Positions 13,546 through 31,388 of a stretch of DNA of 64,000 nt are shown here, one piece after another; positions within the stretch are counted from its first letter, which is position 1; each line of letters begins with the position of its first letter. The notes beneath the pieces were generated by a model. That model did not search any database. It was not told the DNA's origin and saw only the letters and a program-made list of their open reading frames with translations. Both the position numbers and the translations under genes were made by a program. The stretch spans positions 34,756 through 98,755 of the forward strand of contig JBBTRH010000002.1 in NCBI GenBank assembly GCA_038065275.1, read 5' to 3'. The stretch comes from Patescibacteria group bacterium. GTDB lineage: Bacteria; Patescibacteriota; Patescibacteriia; SBBC01; CAIJZX01.

Positions 13546-15117
13546 TTACTTTAATCCAAGTTTCTGCCAAATTTTATTCCAGGGGAACGGACCGCGAATT
13601 AGCGTCACGCGGATGTCCCGCAACCCCAGTTGGGCGTCGCTCGCCTTCAAGCCCGGCGAGGCGATGGAAAAAGTCAGCGTCTTGGTGGCCAGTCCGAGAT
13701 CGCTGAGGTTATATGTCCGGTCGACGACGATATCTTTATTATCTCCGGCCGGCCGCGGCTGATACTTGGCAATAATGTAATCGTACGGCGTCAAATCGGG
13801 CGCACCGGCGACGTCAACGGGGTGGACGCCGTCGGGAATGAGCTCCGCCGGAGCGATTGCGATTAGGCCGTCGCTTAAGACCGTGGCATCGCCTTTGGCG
13901 ATCTCAAAGGCCGTCGGGCCGGATAACCCGCTGGCCGTTTGATTGACTTTCAACTCCTTCAGGTTGAACTTCTTGCCGGCCACCGTCAGGGTTTGCTTGC
14001 CCTGATCATGGTTGGCGGCGAAGGACAAAGACGATCCGCTGGTGACCAGCTGAACCGGCTGGAATGACGGTTCACCGTAGGCCGGACCTTCGGCTAAAAA
14101 AACCCGGCCGTTGAAAGCTAAATTATGTTGCGCGCTGGTTAAGTTGTTGAATACGACATCTTCAGTGGCGGTGATATCAACCAGATATGTGCCGGCCGGT
14201 ACGTTCTTGATCGCCAGATCAACGCGCTGGGCGGCGCCGCGCGGACCTTTCGGGCCGGCGTTACCGTCGTCGGCGACGGTTATTGTTTTCAGCCACGTCC
14301 GCGAATCGTTTGTCAGTTGATCGGCGCGGGCGACTTGAACAGTCATCGTATCGGCGCCCGCTTGCCGATTAAGATCTATTTTATCAAAGGCCAGGCGTAA
14401 ATCCTCGTTCGCCGCGTAAACGTAAAGTTGGTGGTTGCCGCGGAAGGTGCGATTGAGCGTGATCGGCGATGAGCGGGGTTGGTAGTTCGGGATGGAAGCG
14501 AGGGCCAGGCGGTCATAACCGGCAGTGGCGACGGTGTTCAAGTCGGGCGGAGCGGAGCGGAAATCGTTGATCGACGCGTATTGTTTAAGCGTCCGCTCCG
14601 TCGTGACGGTTTTTGTCTTGGCTTTCTTGCCGGTTCCAGTGACGATTTTTTCTTCGCTCACGCGCTTGTCGCGCATCCACAGCGTCATCGTTCCGTCGCT
14701 GACGTGTTTCCAGTCGAGGTTGTCGAGCGCCGCAGAAGAAACAATAGTCGAATAATCGCCGTCGGTTTTCGCCTTAGCGTTCAAGGCGATGTACGATTGC
14801 GTTCCGGGTTGAAGCCGGACGCGAACGCGAACGGCCTCGATTAAACGCGGGATGATGACCTTAAAAGGAAAGTTGTCAGTTGTGACGCGCCAACGAAGCT
14901 TGGCATCAGCGGTGCGGATAAGAGTGGTCGGCGCGGTCGGGCTGACCGCGCGAGTCGCGCGGCCGGGACGGTACATATAGGACAGCGTCGGCGTGATAAA
15001 TATCGATTGGTTGATCAAGTCCGCCAGCAGGGCCAGCGGCACGATCACCATGATAACTTTCACCGCGCTAACGACAGTCTTATAAACCGAGTGGTGGTGG
15101 AGTAAATCGTTGAACAT
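13546..15117 (-). CDS. large membrane-anchored surface protein, paralog A (tandem with 15657-16649)
   Basis: Probable start MFNDLL... (ORF 13546-15192); shares NRTFRGNHQLYVYAA, TWLKTITV and FNGRVFLAEGPAYG...LIAIAPAELIP with paralog B. Confidence 0.45.
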   Translation of the reverse strand: MFNDLLHHHSVYKTVVSAVKVIMVIVPLALLADLINQSIFITPTLSYMYRPGRATRAVSPTAPTTLIRTADAKLRWRVTTDNFPFKVIIPRLIEAVRVRVRLQPGTQSYIALNAKAKTDGDYSTIVSSAALDNLDWKHVSDGTMTLWMRDKRVSEEKIVTGTGKKAKTKTVTTERTLKQYASINDFRSAPPDLNTVATAGYDRLALASIPNYQPRSSPITLNRTFRGNHQLYVYAANEDLRLAFDKIDLNRQAGADTMTVQVARADQLTNDSRTWLKTITVADDGNAGPKGPRGAAQRVDLAIKNVPAGTYLVDITATEDVVFNNLTSAQHNLAFNGRVFLAEGPAYGEPSFQPVQLVTSGSSLSFAANHDQGKQTLTVAGKKFNLKELKVNQTASGLSGPTAFEIAKGDATVLSDGLIAIAPAELIPDGVHPVDVAGAPDLTPYDYIIAKYQPRPAGDNKDIVVDRTYNLSDLGLATKTLTFSIASPGLKASDAQLGLRDIRVTLIRGPFPWNKIWQKLGLK

Positions 15118-15180
15118 GGTAATAACTGGGCGGAATATTACCTTATTTGGGGGAAAAAACAAAGTCAGCCGGAGTGGAAT

Positions 15181-15335
15181 CCCCACCCCCAACGCCCCCT
15201 CCCGACCTCCTCTTCCCCGTGCGCGGGGTTGCCCTCCTTAGGCCGAAGGATGGCACTTCGGGAGGGGGATCTTGAGCAAAGCGAAAGAGGGTGCCGGGGG
15301 TGGGGGTATGCACCCCGGTCACAGCCACCGTTCAT
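15181..15335. repeat. GC-rich G-run/C-run palindromic region (CCCCACCCCCAACGCCCCCTCCCG ... CGGGAGGGGG ... CCGGGGGTGGGGG)
   Basis: Imperfect long inverted repeat; related motifs at 42700-42790, 50324-50398, 60481-60575. Confidence 0.4.
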
Positions 15336-15345
15336 GACACTGAAT

Positions 15346-15519
15346 TTACAACTGTCGCTCAGTCTCTTCAAAAAAAAGTTCGGCCGCTTCCGCAAATCGC
15401 TGCTTCGCCTGATCGAATGTTTTTCCGGAGGTCGACAAATCAAGCGCGGGTGTATAGGCGATAAAACGCTTACCCTCGCGGAGAATGGAAACGGGTAGAA
15501 TAATGTTGCGAACGGCCAT
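15346..15519 (-). CDS. HicB-like/UPF0150 family small protein (57 aa), below ORF-track cutoff
   Basis: MAVRNIILPVSILREGKRFIAYTPALDLSTSGKTFDQAKQRFAEAAELFFEETERQL fits the UPF0150 pattern; -10 ends 6 nt before ATG (leaderless). Confidence 0.4.
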   Translation of the reverse strand: MAVRNIILPVSILREGKRFIAYTPALDLSTSGKTFDQAKQRFAEAAELFFEETERQL

Positions 15520-15554: not shown

Positions 15555-15657
15555 CCCCGTTAGAGGCGAACGCTGACACCAGAAGAACGGTTGATTTTCC
15601 CGGCGTCCTGAATTGTACTATATGACCGAGGCAAACCACCCTCGCCTCTAACGGGGT
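15550..15657. repeat. Inverted-repeat element family A (arms GTCCACCCCGTTAGAGGCGA / TCGCCTCTAACGGGGT, ~72-bp loop)
   Basis: Same core as 3384-3495; right arm abuts stop codon of 15657-16649. Confidence 0.55.
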
Positions 15658-16649
15658 TAATATTTCGCCAAGGCCGCGTCCGACGGCGCAGTATTCGGGG
15701 CCGGGATTTTCGGTTCTTGTTGCTTTACCGCGGGCGGAATGAGTTCGGCCGGCGCGACCGCGATCAAGCCGTCACTGGTGAAAATGGCGTCCCCTTTTGA
15801 CACTCTGACCATCGTCGTGCCGTTCAGTCCGTCAGCCACTTGATCAGCTCGGACGTTAGTTAAGGCATACGTAGCGCCGTTGACTTCGATATTTTGCCGG
15901 CCGGGATAATGATTGGCGGAAAACGCCAGTCTGGTGCCGTCAGTGCTCAGGGAGATCGGAGTAAAGGGGGTCTTGGCGTAAGCCGGCCCCTCGGCCAGGA
16001 ATACCCGCCCGTTAAAGGCTAATAAGCGTTGCCGGCTGGTTACATTGGAAATCAACACGTCTTCGCTGGCGACGATGTCGATCAAGTAGACACCGGGACG
16101 GTCGGCCGGCAGTGACAACGCGACGCGCTGGGGTCTCCCGCGCCGCCCCTTGGCGACCGTCACGCCGTCGTCCCCGACCGTGACGGTTTTTAGCCAGGTT
16201 GGTCGTTCGGCGGCGATGGTGTCGACCCTGGCTATACGGGCAGTTAAAGTCTCGGGGCCGAGATACCGATTGAGATCGACTTTGTCGAAGCTGAACTGAA
16301 TGGTTTCGAGAGCGGCATAAATATAAATCTGGTGACTCCCGCGAAACGTATTGTTGATGGTGATCGGCGCGGCGCTCGGCCGGTATCCTTTGACGACCAC
16401 TGACGCTAATCGATTGACCACCTTGTTCCGGCGGGGAGATGTTTTTGCGACGCGAATATTAACCTTTTTCGTGACGGCGTAAACTTGGGTGATATTGACT
16501 GGATTCCAGCGGAAGATATTATCAAAATCGATAAAAGAAAAATGGCTGTTTACAAGCAATGCGAAAAAGAAGATTGGGACGGTAACTATGATGCCCTTGA
16601 GCGCCTGTAAGCGCGTACAAAAATGTAGTTTTGGGAGTGACTGGTTCAT
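15657..16649 (-). CDS. membrane-anchored surface protein, paralog B
   Basis: 330 aa; N-terminal signal anchor; conserved blocks shared with paralog A. Confidence 0.5.
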   Translation of the reverse strand: MNQSLPKLHFCTRLQALKGIIVTVPIFFFALLVNSHFSFIDFDNIFRWNPVNITQVYAVTKKVNIRVAKTSPRRNKVVNRLASVVVKGYRPSAAPITINNTFRGSHQIYIYAALETIQFSFDKVDLNRYLGPETLTARIARVDTIAAERPTWLKTVTVGDDGVTVAKGRRGRPQRVALSLPADRPGVYLIDIVASEDVLISNVTSRQRLLAFNGRVFLAEGPAYAKTPFTPISLSTDGTRLAFSANHYPGRQNIEVNGATYALTNVRADQVADGLNGTTMVRVSKGDAIFTSDGLIAVAPAELIPPAVKQQEPKIPAPNTAPSDAALAKY

Positions 16650-16723
16650 GAAAAATGTGTCTATGTCTCAGAGTAGCTTAAATGCGGGGGGAAGGCAATG
16701 AAATCGGCAAACGAATCGAAGTT

Positions 16724-16752
16724 TTGACAAAGAAACGAAAAAACAGCATAAT
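16724..16752 (+). promoter_or_regulatory. consensus sigma70 promoter (TTGACA-17-CATAAT) of gmd copy 1
   Basis: Exact -35, 17-nt spacer; nearly identical promoter plus leader repeated at 17868-17896. Confidence 0.65.
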
Positions 16753-16790
16753 GCCTGGGCTGTTTTTGTTTATACTTGTTTGGGAAATCT

Positions 16791-17810
16791 ATGAAAAAGG
16801 CGCTAATAACGGGAATCACCGGCCAGGACGGATCGTACCTGGCAGATTTGCTGTTACAAAAGGACTATGAAGTGCATGGTTTTGTTAGGCGTTCAAGTTC
16901 TTTGCAACGAGAACGGATTGACCATCTCTTGACTGAAAAAGGTAAAAAACGATTGCATTTACATTACGGCGATTTGAATGACAGCGAATCCATCCGACAG
17001 GTACTAAAAGCAGTTAAATTGGATGAGCTTTACCATCTCGGCGGGCAAAGCCATGTGAAGATCAGTTATGAAATGCCCGAATACACGACGGACGTTTCTG
17101 GTGTTAGTACATTAAGATTTCTAGAAGCCATTAGGGAAATCGGTCTACCGACAAAATTCTACCATTCGGCTTCCAGTGAAATGTTTGGTCGCGCAACGAC
17201 TGTGCCGCAAACCGAAACTACTCCGTTTCATCCGCAGAGCCCGTACGCCATTTCCAAAGTTTTTGGTTATTGGACTACGGTAAGTTACCGTGAAAATTAC
17301 CAGATGTTTTGCAGTAATGGCATTATGTACAACCATGAATCGCCGCGCCGCGGGGAAAATTTCGTGACCAGAAAAATTACGCTGTCGTTGAACAAAATCG
17401 TCCAGGGTAAACAAGAAAAACTATCGCTGGGGAATTTGGATGCGACGCGTGATTGGGGCTATGCGCCCGATTACGTCGAAGCCATGTGGCTTATATTGCA
17501 AGCAAACAAACCCGACGATTTTATAGTAGCCAGCGGTGAATCTCATTCAATTCGTGAATTCGTGGAAACGGCTACCGAATACATTAATATCGACATACAA
17601 TGGATTGGAAAGGGCGTAAACGAGCACGGGATTGACCGCCGCACGAGAAAAACCATTATCGATATTGATCCAGTGTTTTTTCGTCCAACCGAAATCGGTC
17701 AATTACAAGGAAATCCGGAGAAAATAAAGAAGGCGCTCGGTTGGAAACCGACAGTCGGTTTCAAAAAGCTTGTTCAGGTCATGATGGAAGCAGATCGCCA
17801 GCAAAAGTAA
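16791..17810 (+). CDS. gmd: GDP-mannose 4,6-dehydratase (copy 1)
   Basis: [22 protein letters not shown]...; SDR Rossmann; GMD motifs ([13 protein letters not shown]). Confidence 0.9.
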   Translation: MKKALITGITGQDGSYLADLLLQKDYEVHGFVRRSSSLQRERIDHLLTEKGKKRLHLHYGDLNDSESIRQVLKAVKLDELYHLGGQSHVKISYEMPEYTTDVSGVSTLRFLEAIREIGLPTKFYHSASSEMFGRATTVPQTETTPFHPQSPYAISKVFGYWTTVSYRENYQMFCSNGIMYNHESPRRGENFVTRKITLSLNKIVQGKQEKLSLGNLDATRDWGYAPDYVEAMWLILQANKPDDFIVASGESHSIREFVETATEYINIDIQWIGKGVNEHGIDRRTRKTIIDIDPVFFRPTEIGQLQGNPEKIKKALGWKPTVGFKKLVQVMMEADRQQK

Positions 17811-17867
17811 TGTTATTTAAATCCTACACCGGCAACAAAAGTCTGAACCATACAAAAAATCGACGTT

Positions 17868-17896
17868 TTGACAAAGCATCGAAAAAATAGCATAAT
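17868..17896 (+). promoter_or_regulatory. consensus sigma70 promoter (TTGACA-17-CATAAT) of gmd copy 2
   Basis: Duplicate of 16724-16752 including about 12 nt upstream and the 5' leader. Confidence 0.65.
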
Positions 17897-17934
17897 GCCG
17901 AGGCTATTTTTGTTTATTCTCGTTTTAGAAATTT

Positions 17935-18969
17935 ATGAAAAAAGCACTGATTACAGGAATTACGGGCCAGGATGGATCATATTTAGCCGAACTTCTTTTG
18001 GAAAAGGGCTACGAAGTCCATGGTATTGTTCGCCGATCATCGACGTTTAACACCGGTCGGCTTGATAACATATACCAGGACCCGCACGCACCTGATCGCC
18101 ACTTAATCCTCCATTACGGCGATTTGACGGACTCTTCAAACCTATTCCGAATTATTGAAAAAGCCAATCCCGATGAAATTTATAACCTCGGGGCGCAGAG
18201 CCACGTCCGAGTTAGTTTTGATATGCCGGAGTACACTGGCGATGCGGATGGCCTCGGCGTAACACGCTTGCTTGAAGCGATCCGCGAAACTCGCGTCAAG
18301 ACAAAGTTTTACCAGGCATCCTCCAGTGAAATGTTCGGAAAGGTTCGTGAAACTCCGCAAACAGAATTGACACCCTTTTACCCGCGCAGTCCGTATGGTG
18401 TAGCAAAGGTCTATGCCTATTGGATGACCGTCAACTTCCGCGAAAGTTACAATCTTTTTGCTTGCAACGGTATTTTGTTCAATCACGAATCTCCCCGCCG
18501 GGGCGAAACATTCGTGACCAGAAAAATTACCCAGGGCTTGTCGCGGATTAAAACTGGAAAACAAGATGTGCTCTACCTGGGTAACCTTGATGCCAAACGC
18601 GACTGGGGTTACGCCAAGGATTACGTGGAAGCGATGTGGCTGATGCTGCAACAACCTAAACCGGACGATTATGTTATCGCTACCGGCGAAACGCATTCAG
18701 TTCGCGAGTTTGTTGAAGAGGCTGGTCGGCATCTCGGTATGGATATCTTATGGCGAGGCGAAGGCATTAACGAAGAAGGTTTTGATAAAAAAACTGGAAA
18801 AACGATCATCAAAATTGATCCTAAATACTTCCGTCCGGCTGAGGTTGATCTGCTGATCGGCGATCCGGCGAAAGCAAAAAAGAAACTTGGCTGGACGCCG
18901 AAGATGACCTTTCAAGATTTGGTAAAATTGATGGTCGAGTCTGATTACCAAACTGAATTAAAAAAGTAG
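17935..18969 (+). CDS. gmd: GDP-mannose 4,6-dehydratase (copy 2, about 60% identical to copy 1)
   Basis: [22 protein letters not shown]...; same motifs ([13 protein letters not shown]). Confidence 0.9.
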
Positions 18970-18973
18970 CTGC

Positions 18974-19921
18974 ATGGAAAAGAATGCGAAAATTTATGTG
19001 GCCGGGCATCGTGGACTTGTCGGTTCGGCGTTAATTCGATACTTACAGGCGCAGGGTTATAGTAATTTGATCTGTCAGACAAGAGCAGAATTAGATTTGA
19101 TGGACTACTCAGCGGTTCAAAGATTTTTTAAAAAAGAAAAACCTGAATTCGTTTTTTTGGCCGCGGCTAAAGTCGGTGGGATTCATGCTAACAACACTCT
19201 CGGCGCGGATTTTATTTACGAAAACCTGACGATTCAAAATAACGTCATTAAATCTGCTCATGATTTTAAAACTAAGAAATTATTATTTTTGGGGAGCAGT
19301 TGCATTTATCCACGCGATTGTCCGCAACCAATAAAAGAAGAGTATTTTCTTGATGGTAAACCTGAACCCACGAACATTCCGTATGCGGCTGCGAAAATTG
19401 CTGGGATACTTATGTGCCAGGCATTCCACAAACAATACGGCGATAATTTCATCTCGGTCATGCCGACTAACCTTTATGGACCGAACGATAACTTTGATCT
19501 CGAAACATCGCATGTTTTTCCGGCTCTCATTCGTAAGTTCCACGAAGCGAAAGTTTCTCATTCACCCACGGTTACTGTTTGGGGTACGGGATCACCAAGA
19601 CGTGAATTTTTACATGTGGATGATTTAGCCGATGCCTGTATCCATTTGATGAAAACATACGACGACCCGTCAATCGTAAACATCGGAACTGGGGAGGATG
19701 TCAGCATCAAAGAATTTGCTGAAATAGTGAAAGAGGTTGTTGGTTACGTCGGTGAAATTGTATGGGATACGACCAAACCAGATGGAACGCCGAGAAAATT
19801 ACTTGATGTTTCGAAAATAAACTCTTTGGGATGGAGGGCGGAGATTCAACTTCGGAATGGCATAAACGAAACATATCAATGGTATCTCAACAACATTCAA
19901 CATGGCCGAGTATCAGGGTAA
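18974..19921 (+). CDS. fcl: GDP-L-fucose synthase (GDP-4-keto-6-deoxymannose 3,5-epimerase/4-reductase)
   Basis: Collinear with E. coli Fcl: [49 protein letters not shown]. Confidence 0.9.
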
Positions 19922-20738
19922 TACAATCGTAATCAAGCCAACAAAAGGATGGGTTTCCATTAACCTCCGTGAGTTATGGCGCTTTCGAGAATTGTTCTAT
20001 ATCTTTTCCTGGCGCGATTTTAAGGTTCGATATAAACAAACAATCATCGGGGTACTCTGGGCAATACTCCAGCCCTTCCTGATGATGGTGGTTTTTTCCA
20101 TTTTTTTTGGTCGTTTGGCCGGCATTTCAAGTAACGGGGTGCCCTATCCGATTTTTGTCTACTCAGGATTAATTTTTTGGAACTATTTTTCAACCGCGCT
20201 GATGGGTGCAAGCAATACACTAACGGACAACGAGAATATCGTAAAGAAAATCTACTTCCCTAGACTTTTACTTCCCTTTTCGGCGACCATTACCCCCCTG
20301 ATCGATTTCTTTTTTGCATTGTTGGTATTGGTGGGGATGATGGTGTACTACCATTCCGCTCCATCACTACTCACTGTTGTTCTATTGCCTCTGCTCCTGC
20401 TGTTGAGTTTTTTAGCAGCATCGGGGCTTGGATCGTTACTTTCGGCCATCAATGTTAGATTTCGGGACGTACGATATGCACTGCCTTTTCTAACACAGTT
20501 GTTATTCTTTGTAACACCAGTCATCTACCCTATTAGTATAGTACCCATTCAATACCATTGGGTGCTCAGTCTGAATCCGATGACAGGTATTATTAATACT
20601 GCTCGGGCGGTATTCTTACACCAAAGCACCATACCGTACACTGAACTTATCTACTCAACGCTGGTCATTATTGTACTCTTTATACATGGCCTATTCTACT
20701 TCCGCCGCACGGAAAAGATATTCGCGGATGTCGCCTGA
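19902..20738 (+). CDS. wzm: ABC-2 type polysaccharide export permease (Wzm-like)
   Basis: 278 aa, 6 TM helices; overlaps fcl stop; followed by ATPase. Confidence 0.8.
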
Positions 20739-20740
20739 TT

Positions 20741-21991
20741 ATGGAGCAAGCCATAATCTCAGCCCAAAATCTGTCGAAAGCGTACCGAATATCGCATCGC
20801 GCGTCATACGGAACATTACGTGATTCAATCTCTCAACTAGCAAAGAGACTACTCACCAAGACAGATCAACACGACACCGTTGAAGAGTACTGGGCATTAC
20901 GCGACATCAACTTTGATGTCCAGACCGGAGAATGCATCGGCATTATCGGGAAAAATGGGGCCGGCAAGAGCACACTACTCAAGATACTGTCACAAATCAC
21001 CTCGCCAACATCTGGCCAAGTGACCATCAACGGTCGGGTCGCGAGCTTGTTAGAGGTGGGAACTGGTTTTCACTCGGAACTCACAGGACGAGAAAATATT
21101 TTTTTGAACGGAGCGATTCTAGGTATGAAGCAGTCGGAGATTCGCAAGAAATTCGATGAAATTGTCGCCTTCGCAGAAGTTGAAAAGTTTCTTGATACGC
21201 CCGTCAAGCGCTATTCCAGTGGTATGTATGTACGTTTGGCTTTCGCCGTCGCTGCCCACCTCGAGCCGGAGATCCTTATTGTCGACGAGGTTTTGGCTGT
21301 TGGTGATGCGGAATTTCAAAAGAAGAGTTTGGGGAAAATGCGTGAGGTTAGTGAGCGGTCCGGTCGAACTGTCATTTTTGTTAGTCACAATATGGCCGCC
21401 ATACGGAAATTGTGCCAACGTGTATTGCTCCTAGATAAAGGACGAATCATCGCTTCAGGAAAAACCGATGCTATCATCACCCAGTATCTGCGACCTCAGC
21501 AAGAGTATCAATCTGAATCCTTATTTAATGACGACGCGCATGACGTTCAATTTCGCAGAGTTGCCACATTAAACATACATAATCAACCCGTTAGAGAATT
21601 CTCCTTCGGTGACAAGATTCTATTGCAAATAAATTTTGATGTAAAAAAGAAAATATTCTCGACTCTCATTATCGGTTTTGAAATATATAATGACGAAGGA
21701 TTGTGTATTTTTACCTCCACCAACGCTGATCAAAGTGGTGTACCAAAAAAAATTGGGGTTGGCAAGTTCCAGGCCAATATTTACATAGACACGCAACAGT
21801 TGCTCCGACCAGGAAATTTCACCCTAAACTTCCATGCGATCGTCCCAAATATCTGTATTATTGAAAATATTGAAGGAGAAATCGGCTTTTCAGTAATGGA
21901 TAGCAACGAGAACATTACCTCCAAACTTGGGTATATCAGACGAGGTGTTCTTGAACCAGTACTGCCCTGGAATATTCAGAAACTCTCCTAA
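20741..21991 (+). CDS. wzt: polysaccharide ABC transporter ATP-binding protein (Wzt-like) with C-terminal extension
   Basis: Walker A GKNGAGKST, ABC signature; about 170-aa C-terminal domain as in O-antigen-cap-binding Wzt. Confidence 0.85.
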   Translation: MEQAIISAQNLSKAYRISHRASYGTLRDSISQLAKRLLTKTDQHDTVEEYWALRDINFDVQTGECIGIIGKNGAGKSTLLKILSQITSPTSGQVTINGRVASLLEVGTGFHSELTGRENIFLNGAILGMKQSEIRKKFDEIVAFAEVEKFLDTPVKRYSSGMYVRLAFAVAAHLEPEILIVDEVLAVGDAEFQKKSLGKMREVSERSGRTVIFVSHNMAAIRKLCQRVLLLDKGRIIASGKTDAIITQYLRPQQEYQSESLFNDDAHDVQFRRVATLNIHNQPVREFSFGDKILLQINFDVKKKIFSTLIIGFEIYNDEGLCIFTSTNADQSGVPKKIGVGKFQANIYIDTQQLLRPGNFTLNFHAIVPNICIIENIEGEIGFSVMDSNENITSKLGYIRRGVLEPVLPWNIQKLS

Positions 21992-29357: not shown

Positions 29358-30236
29358 ATGATTATCTCCCACATCATCGGCGGCACTGGAAACCAAATGT
29401 TTCAGTACGCCGTCGGTCGAGCACTAGCTTTACGTCTGGGCACTGAAGTCAAGGTTGATGTTACTGAATTCGCTCGCTATCCACTGCGAACGTACGACCT
29501 TCATAAATTCAATGTGCACACAGCCAAGGCGTCCGCACAAGAATTCCTCACATTACGCGGTCAGATAAATCAAGGACCTAGTAGTCGTCTACTTCAACGA
29601 CTCTTGCCGAGAATCTACCGGACCAAAACTGGGTACTACAAGGAACGCGGATTTACATTTGATACAAACGTACTGAACCTGCCCGATAATACTCTTTTAG
29701 AGGGATTCTGGCAGTCCGAAAAATACTTTACCGATGTAGCCGACACCATCCGTCAGGATTTCATGACTACCGAACCGCTTGATCCAGTAAACCAGCACCT
29801 GTACGACCAAATCAAAGGAACTATGGCCATTGCGGTCCATGTCCGTCGTGGGGATTATGTGACGAATTCAGTGACTAACGCCTTTCACGGTACCACACCG
29901 CTTGAATATTACCGCGCCGCCGTGCAGAAGATGACCGCCTACGTTCCGCAAGCGACGTTCTTCGTCTTTTCTGATGACCACCCATGGGTCCAGCAAAACC
30001 TGAAGTTCAATGCTCCTACCGTCTTCGTCACCGCCAACGACGCATCACGATCACACTTTGACCTTCACCTGATGCGTGCTTGCCAACACCACGTCCTGGC
30101 TAATAGCTCGTTCAGTTGGTGGGGAGCTTGGTTGGCCGAACATCCCACACAACACGTCATCGCCCCAGCACGTTGGTTTGCCAACATCTCGCTGGATACC
30201 AAGGACCTTATCCCTGACCGATGGGAGAAAATGTAA
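29358..30236 (+). CDS. alpha-1,2-fucosyltransferase (glycosyltransferase family 11)
   Basis: GT11 motifs: IIGGTGNQMFQYA, HVRRGDY, ANSSFSWWGAWL; collinear with H. pylori FutC. Confidence 0.9.
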   Translation: MIISHIIGGTGNQMFQYAVGRALALRLGTEVKVDVTEFARYPLRTYDLHKFNVHTAKASAQEFLTLRGQINQGPSSRLLQRLLPRIYRTKTGYYKERGFTFDTNVLNLPDNTLLEGFWQSEKYFTDVADTIRQDFMTTEPLDPVNQHLYDQIKGTMAIAVHVRRGDYVTNSVTNAFHGTTPLEYYRAAVQKMTAYVPQATFFVFSDDHPWVQQNLKFNAPTVFVTANDASRSHFDLHLMRACQHHVLANSSFSWWGAWLAEHPTQHVIAPARWFANISLDTKDLIPDRWEKM

Positions 30237-30395: not shown

Positions 30396-31388
30396 ATGCA
30401 GTCATTCAACAATAAACGCGTACTCATCTTCGGTGGCCTCGGCTTGATCGGTAGTGGTGTAGCCCGGATGTGCATTGCCCAGGGGGCCAGTGTTACTATC
30501 GCAGACAACCGCGCGCCCATTTTTGGGGCCAACGATTTCAATCTTTCTGACCTTGATGGAAAATTCGAGTTACTGACCGGCGACGTCCGTGAACTCAATT
30601 TTGTCCAGCAAGCTGTACGCGATAAAGACTACGTTCTGAACTTCGCCGCACAAGTTGACCACGTTCGGAGTATCGAAGATCCGATACTTGATAACCAATT
30701 AAACTGTGTCGGCCACCTCAACGTACTACTAGCGTGTCGGGACATCAATCCAGATGCCATTCTATTCTACCCCGGTTCTCGCCTGCAGTATGGAAGTACG
30801 CCGACCCTGCCGGTAGCGGAATCACATCCCCGGCGACCGATCAGTCTCTACGCCATTCATAAAAACACCGCCGAACAATACTACCAAGTATTCTCTACGT
30901 ATCATGGCATTCGTTTAGTGTGTATACGAATTACAAACCCATATGGCCCACGTGCCCAGATGAAGAATCCACGCTACGGCTTAGTCAATTGGTTCGTCCG
31001 CCAAGCGTTGGATGGAAAGACAATCACGGTCTATGGCAATGGCCGCCAACAACGCGATTACATTTACATCGACGATTTGGTCGATGGCATACTTCAAGTT
31101 ATTGCCACCCCAAAATGTTTCGGTCACGTCTACAACCTGGGATCGGGACAAGGTACGAGATTCATTGATATGGCCAAGACGGTTGTGCAGGCGGTAGGGC
31201 AAGGTGAGGTCGTTTCAGTCCCTTGGCCAAAACAATTCGATACATCAGAGTCTGGCGATTTCTATGCCGATATCGCCGCCATCACTTCTGATACGACATG
31301 GACGCCCGTAACGAATCTATCGAGCGGTATTCAACAAACCGTCGAGTACTACCGTGTACACCGCGATAAGTACTGGACACGCGAGTAG
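30396..31388 (+). CDS. NAD-dependent epimerase/dehydratase (extended SDR)
   Basis: VLIFGGLGLIGS Rossmann motif; YAIHK catalytic YxxxK. Confidence 0.7.
   Translation: MQSFNNKRVLIFGGLGLIGSGVARMCIAQGASVTIADNRAPIFGANDFNLSDLDGKFELLTGDVRELNFVQQAVRDKDYVLNFAAQVDHVRSIEDPILDNQLNCVGHLNVLLACRDINPDAILFYPGSRLQYGSTPTLPVAESHPRRPISLYAIHKNTAEQYYQVFSTYHGIRLVCIRITNPYGPRAQMKNPRYGLVNWFVRQALDGKTITVYGNGRQQRDYIYIDDLVDGILQVIATPKCFGHVYNLGSGQGTRFIDMAKTVVQAVGQGEVVSVPWPKQFDTSESGDFYADIAAITSDTTWTPVTNLSSGIQQTVEYYRVHRDKYWTRE

Follow-up and report, generated by a model that had tools for sequence, protein, structure and literature searches.

Two genes for guanosine diphosphate (GDP)-mannose 4,6-dehydratase (GMD), gmd1 and gmd2, lie in tandem in a stretch of 64,000 nt (hereafter, the window) of a Patescibacteria metagenome-assembled contig from Hainich groundwater (candidate phyla radiation, CPR; contig JBBTRH010000002.1, positions 34,756 to 98,755, assembly GCA_038065275.1). 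Each gene is directly preceded by a copy of the same 77-nt non-coding block, i.e., a candidate promoter followed by a 5′ leader, which we call P1 in front of gmd1 and P2 in front of gmd2. We describe here the sequence relationships of this block, its boundaries, and its phylogenetic distribution. We consider it likely that a lineage-specific duplication of the gmd2 promoter and leader replaced the promoter that gmd1 originally had.

The two blocks are identical at 65 of their 77 positions (84%), and all 12 differences fall outside both promoter hexamers. The block extends from 10 nt 5′ of the TTGACA hexamer to the last base before the ATG, and the similarity breaks off sharply at −78. In a global alignment of the two genes with 150 nt of upstream sequence, the identity is 22% between −150 and −90 and then 77–82% from about −80 to −1. 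An earlier note on this DNA, made from the sequence alone, had named uniform divergence along both copies as the outcome that would speak against a special upstream region, and this jump is the opposite of it. The same note had put at 80–85% the identity of about 75 nt upstream and of the first 100 or so coding nucleotides. The upstream part of this statement stands, while the coding part reaches only about 73–76%. The likeness of P1 and P2 is far beyond chance. Indeed, the local alignment of the two intergenic regions scores 54, against 10.6 ± 1.8 (maximum 21) in 2000 dinucleotide shuffles, and the runner-up among the pairs drawn from 31 upstream regions of the window scores 18.

Both blocks contain the arrangement TTGACA-17-CATAAT, which matches the sigma-70 consensus at 11 of 12 positions, so that the near-identical consensus promoters claimed for both genes are present in each block. 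Of all sites between 13 and 26 kb, these two are the most promoter-like, and the arrangement occurs twice in the whole window, at P1 and P2 alone. From standard sigma-70 geometry, transcription is predicted to start at about 16758–16760 for P1 and 17902–17904 for P2, which would leave a 5′ untranslated region of 31–33 nt (~32 nt) in both cases, and both blocks would fire as sigma-70-type promoters. The true start of gmd1 is the ATG at 16791 and not the TTG at 16776 that the list of open reading frames (ORFs) had given. The ATG found inside the sequence CATAATG opens a short hydrophobic ORF in five out of five known block copies, i.e., the two of the window (16751 and 17895) and those of the related contigs L064 (6107), L065 (6102), and L067 (1204), the products reading MPGLFLFILVW..., MPRLFLFILVL..., and, with a stop at their end, MSGSFLYILI, MSKLFLCMFIFRSL, and MSGLILFVIF. 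This ORF is probably not translated from the block's own promoters because transcription is predicted to start downstream of it; at P2, it could be translated from read-through transcripts.

The genes behind these two blocks are strongly diverged. We measured 199 identical residues out of 339 (58.7%) between the two proteins, close to the ~60% of the earlier estimate. Both pass the equivalog cut-off of TIGR01472 (415 bits), with 488.4 bits for Gmd1 and 590 bits for Gmd2, and both match PF16363 (E = 2.7e-136 and 2.1e-158, respectively). In their pairwise alignment, both keep the motifs GxxGxxG, S/T-x-E, YxxxK, and NHESPRRG (NHESPRRGE), which we take, from GMD structures, to be the catalytic and cofactor motifs of the short-chain dehydrogenase/reductase (SDR) fold. 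By this family assignment, both are predicted to convert GDP-mannose to GDP-4-keto-6-deoxymannose. The exact proteins were also found in an NCBI metagenome-assembled genome (MAG), in the Logan assembly of ERR3858126, and in ENA ERZ1292631. The protein search returned Gmd1 orthologues at 85% (P0002), 80% (P0005), 74% (P0003 and P0004), and 71% (P0006) identity, the next matches lying at 63–67% and including a Kerfeldbacteria MAG; a genome-contig scan with Gmd1 gave matches of at most 58%, from unrelated phyla. Gmd2 is 80–86% identical to many Patescibacteria Gmds. A neighbour-joining tree places the Gmd1-type proteins in a clade of their own, in which the subclade of the window sits on a long stem, and puts Gmd2 in the mainstream CPR clade. 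The identity of gmd1 and gmd2 at four-fold degenerate sites is 0.28, for a random expectation of 0.25. The two genes are ancient paralogues or xenologues and not recent tandem duplicates, which agrees with the different origins that had been suggested for them.

We compared the window with three related metagenome contigs (L064, L065, and L067) that also carry gmd1 and gmd2 in tandem. The gene order of L064 is gmd1-gmd2-fcl-wzm-wzt, and L065 and L067, over the length that their contigs cover, show gmd1 followed by the block and gmd2. In all three, the block precedes gmd2 only. It takes there the form TTTTGACAA-N14-AGCATAATG-YC..G...TTTTGT, where TTTTGACAA, AGCATAATG, and TTTTGT are invariant, and it is 59–69% identical to the window blocks. 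P1 itself is 61–69% identical to these gmd2-upstream blocks, and its similarity to the native gmd1 promoters of the relatives does not rise above background. Its closest known relative is P2 of the same genome (84%, vs. 61–69% for the P2 of other genomes). The view that the shared upstream region came about by copying is supported, and the copy is lineage-specific, since the relatives have the block at gmd2 only.

What stands in front of gmd1 in the relatives is of another kind. In L067 (Gmd1 85% identical in amino acids), L068 (80%), L066, and L065, gmd1 has its own, different TTGACT-17-TAnAAT promoter, and in L064 it starts 15 nt after wecB, without a promoter of its own. L067 and L068 have native gmd1 promoters and leaders that can be aligned with one another (score 21, 41/57), and these two taxa bracket the window in the tree, whose topology is ((window, P0002 = L067), P0005 = L068). 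The native gmd1 promoter is therefore ancestral, and its loss in the window is derived. On the other hand, in genomes that have a gmd2 orthologue (83–86%) and no gmd1 (L152/L153, L154, and L210), the regions upstream of gmd2 are unrelated to the block, which is therefore confined to the tandem clade and does not serve as a leader of gmd genes in general. A metagenome-contig scan with Gmd2 gave, among the matches listed, a best identity of at most 75% and no match with the block. Moreover, a viral-contig scan with TTGACAA-N14-AGCATAATG returned 55 stretches, and the 53 that were comparable over all 77 nt share with the block only the fixed bases (maximum 40/77, median 33/77).

These observations suggest the following course of events. 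The 77-nt block would be a sigma-70-type promoter (TTGACA-17-CATAAT) with a 5′ untranslated region of about 32 nt that natively heads the gmd2-fcl-wzm-wzt operon in a small Patescibacteria clade with tandem gmd1-gmd2. In the lineage of the window, alone among the sampled genomes, a copy of this block would have displaced the promoter and leader of gmd1, the copied tract stopping at the start codon. As to the direction of copying and its mechanism, either ectopic conversion or a small segmental duplication, we infer them from the comparison above. The two paralogues would then be driven by near-identical promoters and leaders, and presumably be co-expressed at similar strength; from the block sequences, co-expression of gmd1 and gmd2 from P1 and P2 is probable. 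The P1 transcripts would also read through into gmd2 and the genes downstream, which is probable because no terminator-like hairpin was found between the two genes (17811–17934).

Several points weigh against this account. P1 is slightly nearer to the P2 of L067 (69%) than the P2 of the window is (61%), and the copy may have had a source outside this genome. Between the window and L067, the identity at four-fold sites is 0.46 for gmd1 (n = 78) and 0.25, i.e., saturated, for gmd2 (n = 32, 129 codons), although Gmd2 is the more conserved protein (88%, vs. 85% for Gmd1). This hints that recombination downstream of gmd1 may have swapped the gmd2-fcl cassette. A boundary placed exactly at the ATG is unexpected for random recombination; the visible limit of the block may have been set by selection and not by the copying event itself. 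The promoter activity of P1 and P2 is predicted from their match to the consensus. Finally, the tandem arrangement is known in four genomes only, two of them represented by short contigs.

One can also imagine that P1 was brought in, along with part of the low-GC glycan island, when the genome recombined with a related strain, the crossover lying near the conserved gmd start. The donor would then carry a gmd2-type promoter beside the divergently oriented neighbour gene. The GC content falls from ~58% to ~43% at about 16.35–16.5 kb, just left of P1; the unequal four-fold identities to L067 given above suggest a mosaic history; gmd2 directly adjoins the same divergent neighbour family in L152 and L154; and several assemblies break at the borders of the gmd1 locus. 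However, the known genomes with gmd2 beside this neighbour gene lack the block, P1 is closest to the P2 of its own genome, gmd1 is clearly orthologous to the gmd1 of L067 from codon 19 on at the latest, and the gmd2 comparison is drawn from 32 four-fold sites. We hold such a strain-level import to be unlikely. The short-read assembly breaks lie at window position 16597 (start of L001), inside gmd2 (L065), and 68 nt past gmd1 (L066), and they are compatible with strain-level variation at the glycan locus.

The block could also be a dedicated cis-regulatory module, i.e., an operator over the promoter or a translational leader RNA, kept by selection so that both Gmds answer one signal. The five known copies are conserved past the hexamers (TTTTGACAA, AGCATAATG, and C..G...TTTTGT in the leader), the spacer and the leader are alike between P1 and P2, and, in the consensus fold, the start codon lies in a stretch (AUGAAAAARGC) complementary to the 5′ end of the leader, GCUNUUUUUGU. 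Recent copying alone, without selection, nevertheless predicts the spacer similarity of P1 and P2, and the gmd2 orthologues of the genomes without gmd1 have unrelated upstream regions, so that the block is no general regulator of gmd. With about 32 nt, the leader is too short to be a riboswitch. Rfam gave no hit at the gathering threshold and, at E ≤ 10, only a spurious small nucleolar RNA (snoZ5, on the opposite strand, 22 bits for a threshold of 60). None of the five leaders folds more stably than shuffled sequence (z = +1.3, +0.2, −1.4, +1.7, and +0.1). The pairing of GCUNUUUUUGU with AUGAAAAARGC, which recurs in the consensus folds (16759–16803 and 17903–17947) and could, according to this model, mask the AUG, is a weak, low-complexity U:A pairing without covariation, and the sole compensatory pair falls in the coding part. 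Selection for a shared structured leader, as had been envisaged, is thus not required by the data, and we find a dedicated module quite improbable.

A leader of the RfaH/ops type was considered and rejected, the ops 8-mer GGCGGTAG being absent from 16714–16790 and 17858–17934, and no NusG-type Pfam hit was found among the window ORFs scanned, which were part of the total. Elsewhere in the window, the GGCGGTAG octamer occurs eight times (2051, 22525, 22747, 25924, 31190, 33103, 44668, and 52707), for 1.6 expected, and none of 100 shuffles reaches eight; this excess may be a codon-level or compositional effect.

A more elaborate form of the regulatory idea takes in the function of Gmd1. It starts from two distant Gmd1-type loci, L069 (5001–6945) and L071 (281–2076), where the gmd gene is followed after 7 nt by the gene of a 302-amino-acid SDR protein that matches the GDP-6-deoxy-D-lyxo-4-hexulose reductase Rmd (PDB 2pk3; E = 1e-70). 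A contig of ERZ1426827 has, by its architecture, the same arrangement, and the gmd-rmd pairs of L069 and L071 sit in the place (PEGA ... PMT_2 ... gmd) that corresponds by synteny to that of gmd1 in the window. From these gene neighbourhoods, the ancestral role of the Gmd1-type clade looks like that of a dehydratase paired with Rmd for GDP-D-rhamnose, and Gmd2 looks like the dehydratase partner in a GDP-L-fucose pair. The suggestion of the earlier note that the two Gmds may feed different GDP-6-deoxyhexose branches is thus backed by gene context. No rmd homologue was found in the 64-kb window or in the tandem-clade loci fetched. The only matches to the Rmd of L069 that a tblastn search gave in the window were both gmd genes (28% and 25%) along with two unrelated SDR genes. 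The statement that only one fcl is present is correct, and the window has in addition three other SDR genes, which resemble UDP- or dTDP-sugar (uridine or thymidine diphosphate) enzymes. The in-cluster SDR gene at 30396–31388 was tried as the missing Rmd and rejected; it is 22% identical to the Rmd of L069, and UDP-sugar epimerases are its top matches in the PDB.

The GMD of the chlorovirus PBCV-1 is bifunctional, a dehydratase and a 4-reductase, and yields GDP-D-rhamnose (PMC5408694). It resembles the present case as a divergent GMD standing alongside a GDP-fucose pathway, and it offers a precedent for a second 6-deoxyhexose made without a separate Rmd; the reductase activity has, however, been assigned to the viral enzyme, whereas Gmd1 is known from its sequence alone. 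A bifunctional Gmd1 of this kind is a lead by analogy and not a result. In the elaborate form, the block would be a control module (e.g., an operator over the promoter, or base pairing between the U-rich 5′ end of the leader and AUGAAAAA at the gene start), recruited to bring Gmd1 under the control of the fucose/export operon, and Gmd1 would have a changed role, e.g., as a bifunctional dehydratase/4-reductase like that of PBCV-1, which would provide the same glycan with a second 6-deoxyhexose. The Gmd1 clade would have been ancestrally partnered with Rmd, and in the tandem clade Gmd1 would have lost this partner and be evolving faster. Gmd1 does evolve faster than Gmd2 (74% vs. 84% identity for the pair formed by the window and L064), and it is intact in six genomes. 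We regard this combined scenario as a long shot.

Gene conversion between the two gmd copies had been proposed to extend into their 5′ coding ends, over about 100 nt. Codons 1–30 do have a DNA identity of ~76%, above the ~60% found gene-wide, but 27 of these 30 residues are identical in all Gmds, as this is the Rossmann N-terminus. Where residues are identical, the same codon is used in 9 of 26 cases in codons 1–30 and in 71 of 163 elsewhere (Fisher p = 0.52). In codons 2–18, 12 of 17 third positions differ (P = 8e-7 if the divergence were 16%, as in the block). Synonymous identity is not raised to the level of the flanking non-coding sequence, as a conversion tract would have it, and the first 96 nt of gmd1 are no nearer to gmd2 of the window than to any other Gmd gene compared. 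The 5′ coding similarity is fully explained by amino-acid conservation. Codon use and third positions being as diverged there as elsewhere, the excess similarity does not extend past the start codon and is therefore limited to the 77 non-coding nt. Homogenisation of the 5′ coding ends is already contradicted by this synonymous-site analysis, and we give it hardly any weight.

An assembly artefact has a negligible probability, for although a Logan contig begins at window position 16597, near P1, both blocks are found with 0–1 mismatches in the window and in the Logan contigs L001/L002 (the ENA contig L003 matching for P2), the copies differ at 12 positions, which argues against a collapse or a mis-join, and the relatives have the same gmd1-block-gmd2 layout.

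Table 1. Features of the gmd1-gmd2 region, in window coordinates.
Feature	Position	Strand	Description
Block P1	16714-16790	+	candidate promoter and 5′ leader directly upstream of gmd1; read as a likely copy of the gmd2 type
P1 −35 hexamer	16724-16729	+	TTGACA; promoter scan
P1 −10 hexamer	16747-16752	+	CATAAT; promoter scan; 17-nt spacer
gmd1	16791-17810	+	339 amino acids; GDP-mannose 4,6-dehydratase, divergent Gmd1-type clade
Spacer, non-conserved part	17811-17857	+	not similar to the sequence 5′ of P1
Block P2	17858-17934	+	resident gmd2 promoter (predicted) and 5′ leader; internal promoter heading gmd2-fcl-wzm-wzt-...
P2 −35 hexamer	17868-17873	+	TTGACA; promoter scan
P2 −10 hexamer	17891-17896	+	CATAAT; promoter scan
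gmd2	17935-18969	+	344 amino acids; GDP-mannose 4,6-dehydratase, mainstream Patescibacteria type
fcl-like gene	18974-19921	+	putative GDP-L-fucose synthase; PF01370; NF047922 (score just under the cut-off)
wzm	19902-20738	+	ABC2_membrane; part of glycan ABC exporter
wzt	20741-21991	+	ABC_tran and Wzt_C (C-terminal carbohydrate-binding domain)
Glycosyltransferase and methyltransferase genes	after wzt, to ~32.5 kb	+	Pfam
GT11 fucosyltransferase-family protein	29358-30236		within the glycosyltransferase run

The region that runs from gmd1 through gmd2, fcl, wzm, and wzt (Table 1) is an ABC-transporter-dependent glycan cluster, and the gmd-fcl-wzm-wzt context is standard. The fcl-like protein, a full-length match, scores 488.8 bits with NF047922, slightly below the equivalog cut-off of 500 bits. 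The glycan cluster (16350–38000) is a low-GC island, with 44–50% GC in a genome of 56–65% GC, and the left edge of this island is sharp and lies in the 5′ end of a 330-amino-acid minus-strand gene.

To the left of gmd1, 15657–16649 (−) and 13546–15192 (−) are neighbouring paralogues that are 50% identical over 252 amino acids and have no Pfam match. Their homologues adjoin gmd1 or gmd2 divergently in L065, L066, L068, L069, and L154, where they sit 3′ of a PMT_2 glycosyltransferase and a PEGA-domain gene. The two paralogues belong to a family that is uncharacterised but conserved beside the glycan locus. A HicB-like reading of the small ORF at 15346–15519 (−) was dropped, having no Pfam support. 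A GC-rich, partly hairpin-forming element, TTGCCCTCCTTAGGCCGAAGGATGGCAC..., occurs once in the window (15229–15268), gave no Rfam match, and matches nt 1–39 of L067; it lies ~95 nt upstream of gmd1 in L067 and ~1.5 kb upstream in the window. From this common marker, a 1.4-kb insertion 5′ of gmd1 that would have destroyed the native promoter was proposed. This idea was dropped, as the best homologue of the 330-amino-acid neighbour adjoins gmd1 in L068, and the neighbour is therefore not a recent insertion.

Several known systems resemble this locus in part. Conserved non-coding leaders also head long polysaccharide operons of enterobacteria, where the JUMPstart/ops leader mediates RfaH-dependent antitermination; here, by contrast, GGCGGTAG is absent from both gmd leaders and the conservation of the block is confined to four genomes. 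As in other gmd-fcl modules of wzm/wzt polysaccharide clusters, gmd2-fcl-wzm-wzt is followed by glycosyltransferases, including a GT11 member, and Wzt_C is present, but a second, anciently diverged gmd lies immediately upstream with what we read as a copy of the operon promoter. The gmd-rmd pair, known for instance with the Rmd of Aneurinibacillus thermoaerophilus (PDB 2pk3), has its counterpart in the distant Gmd1-type loci L069 and L071, which carry an Rmd homologue, whereas gmd1 of the window is followed by gmd2-fcl. The closest analogy is the upstream homology box (UHB) family of Borrelia burgdorferi (ospE/ospF/erp; Marconi et al. 1996, J Bacteriol 178:5615), in which, as presented in the later paper that cites it (PMC10016077), strongly diverged coding sequences stand behind a conserved promoter/leader block spread by recombination or duplication. 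According to the same account, the UHB family has many copies on cp32 prophage plasmids and is linked to antigenic variation, whereas the block described here has two copies on the chromosome, which lie 1.1 kb apart and precede genes for sugar-nucleotide enzymes of a housekeeping type. The parallel is an analogy only, without sequence relationship.

In conclusion, the duplicated regulatory region described here is clean but ordinary, and no new kind of element or mechanism is involved. It adds one more case to a known kind of event. In the tandem clade, purifying selection maintains both of these anciently diverged Gmd enzymes, and the Gmd1-type clade is linked to an Rmd partner. The locus also points to a possibly specialised second Gmd. 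To our knowledge, there are essentially no experimental data on promoters or regulation in Patescibacteria/CPR, and P1 and P2 form a pair of candidate strong promoters for this group. If our preferred account of a lineage-specific duplication is right, the locus would be a well-resolved natural example of a promoter replaced by a copy of the promoter and leader of a neighbouring gene, with the ancestral state kept in relatives, and its value lies mainly in being a documented example of this in an uncultivated phylum.

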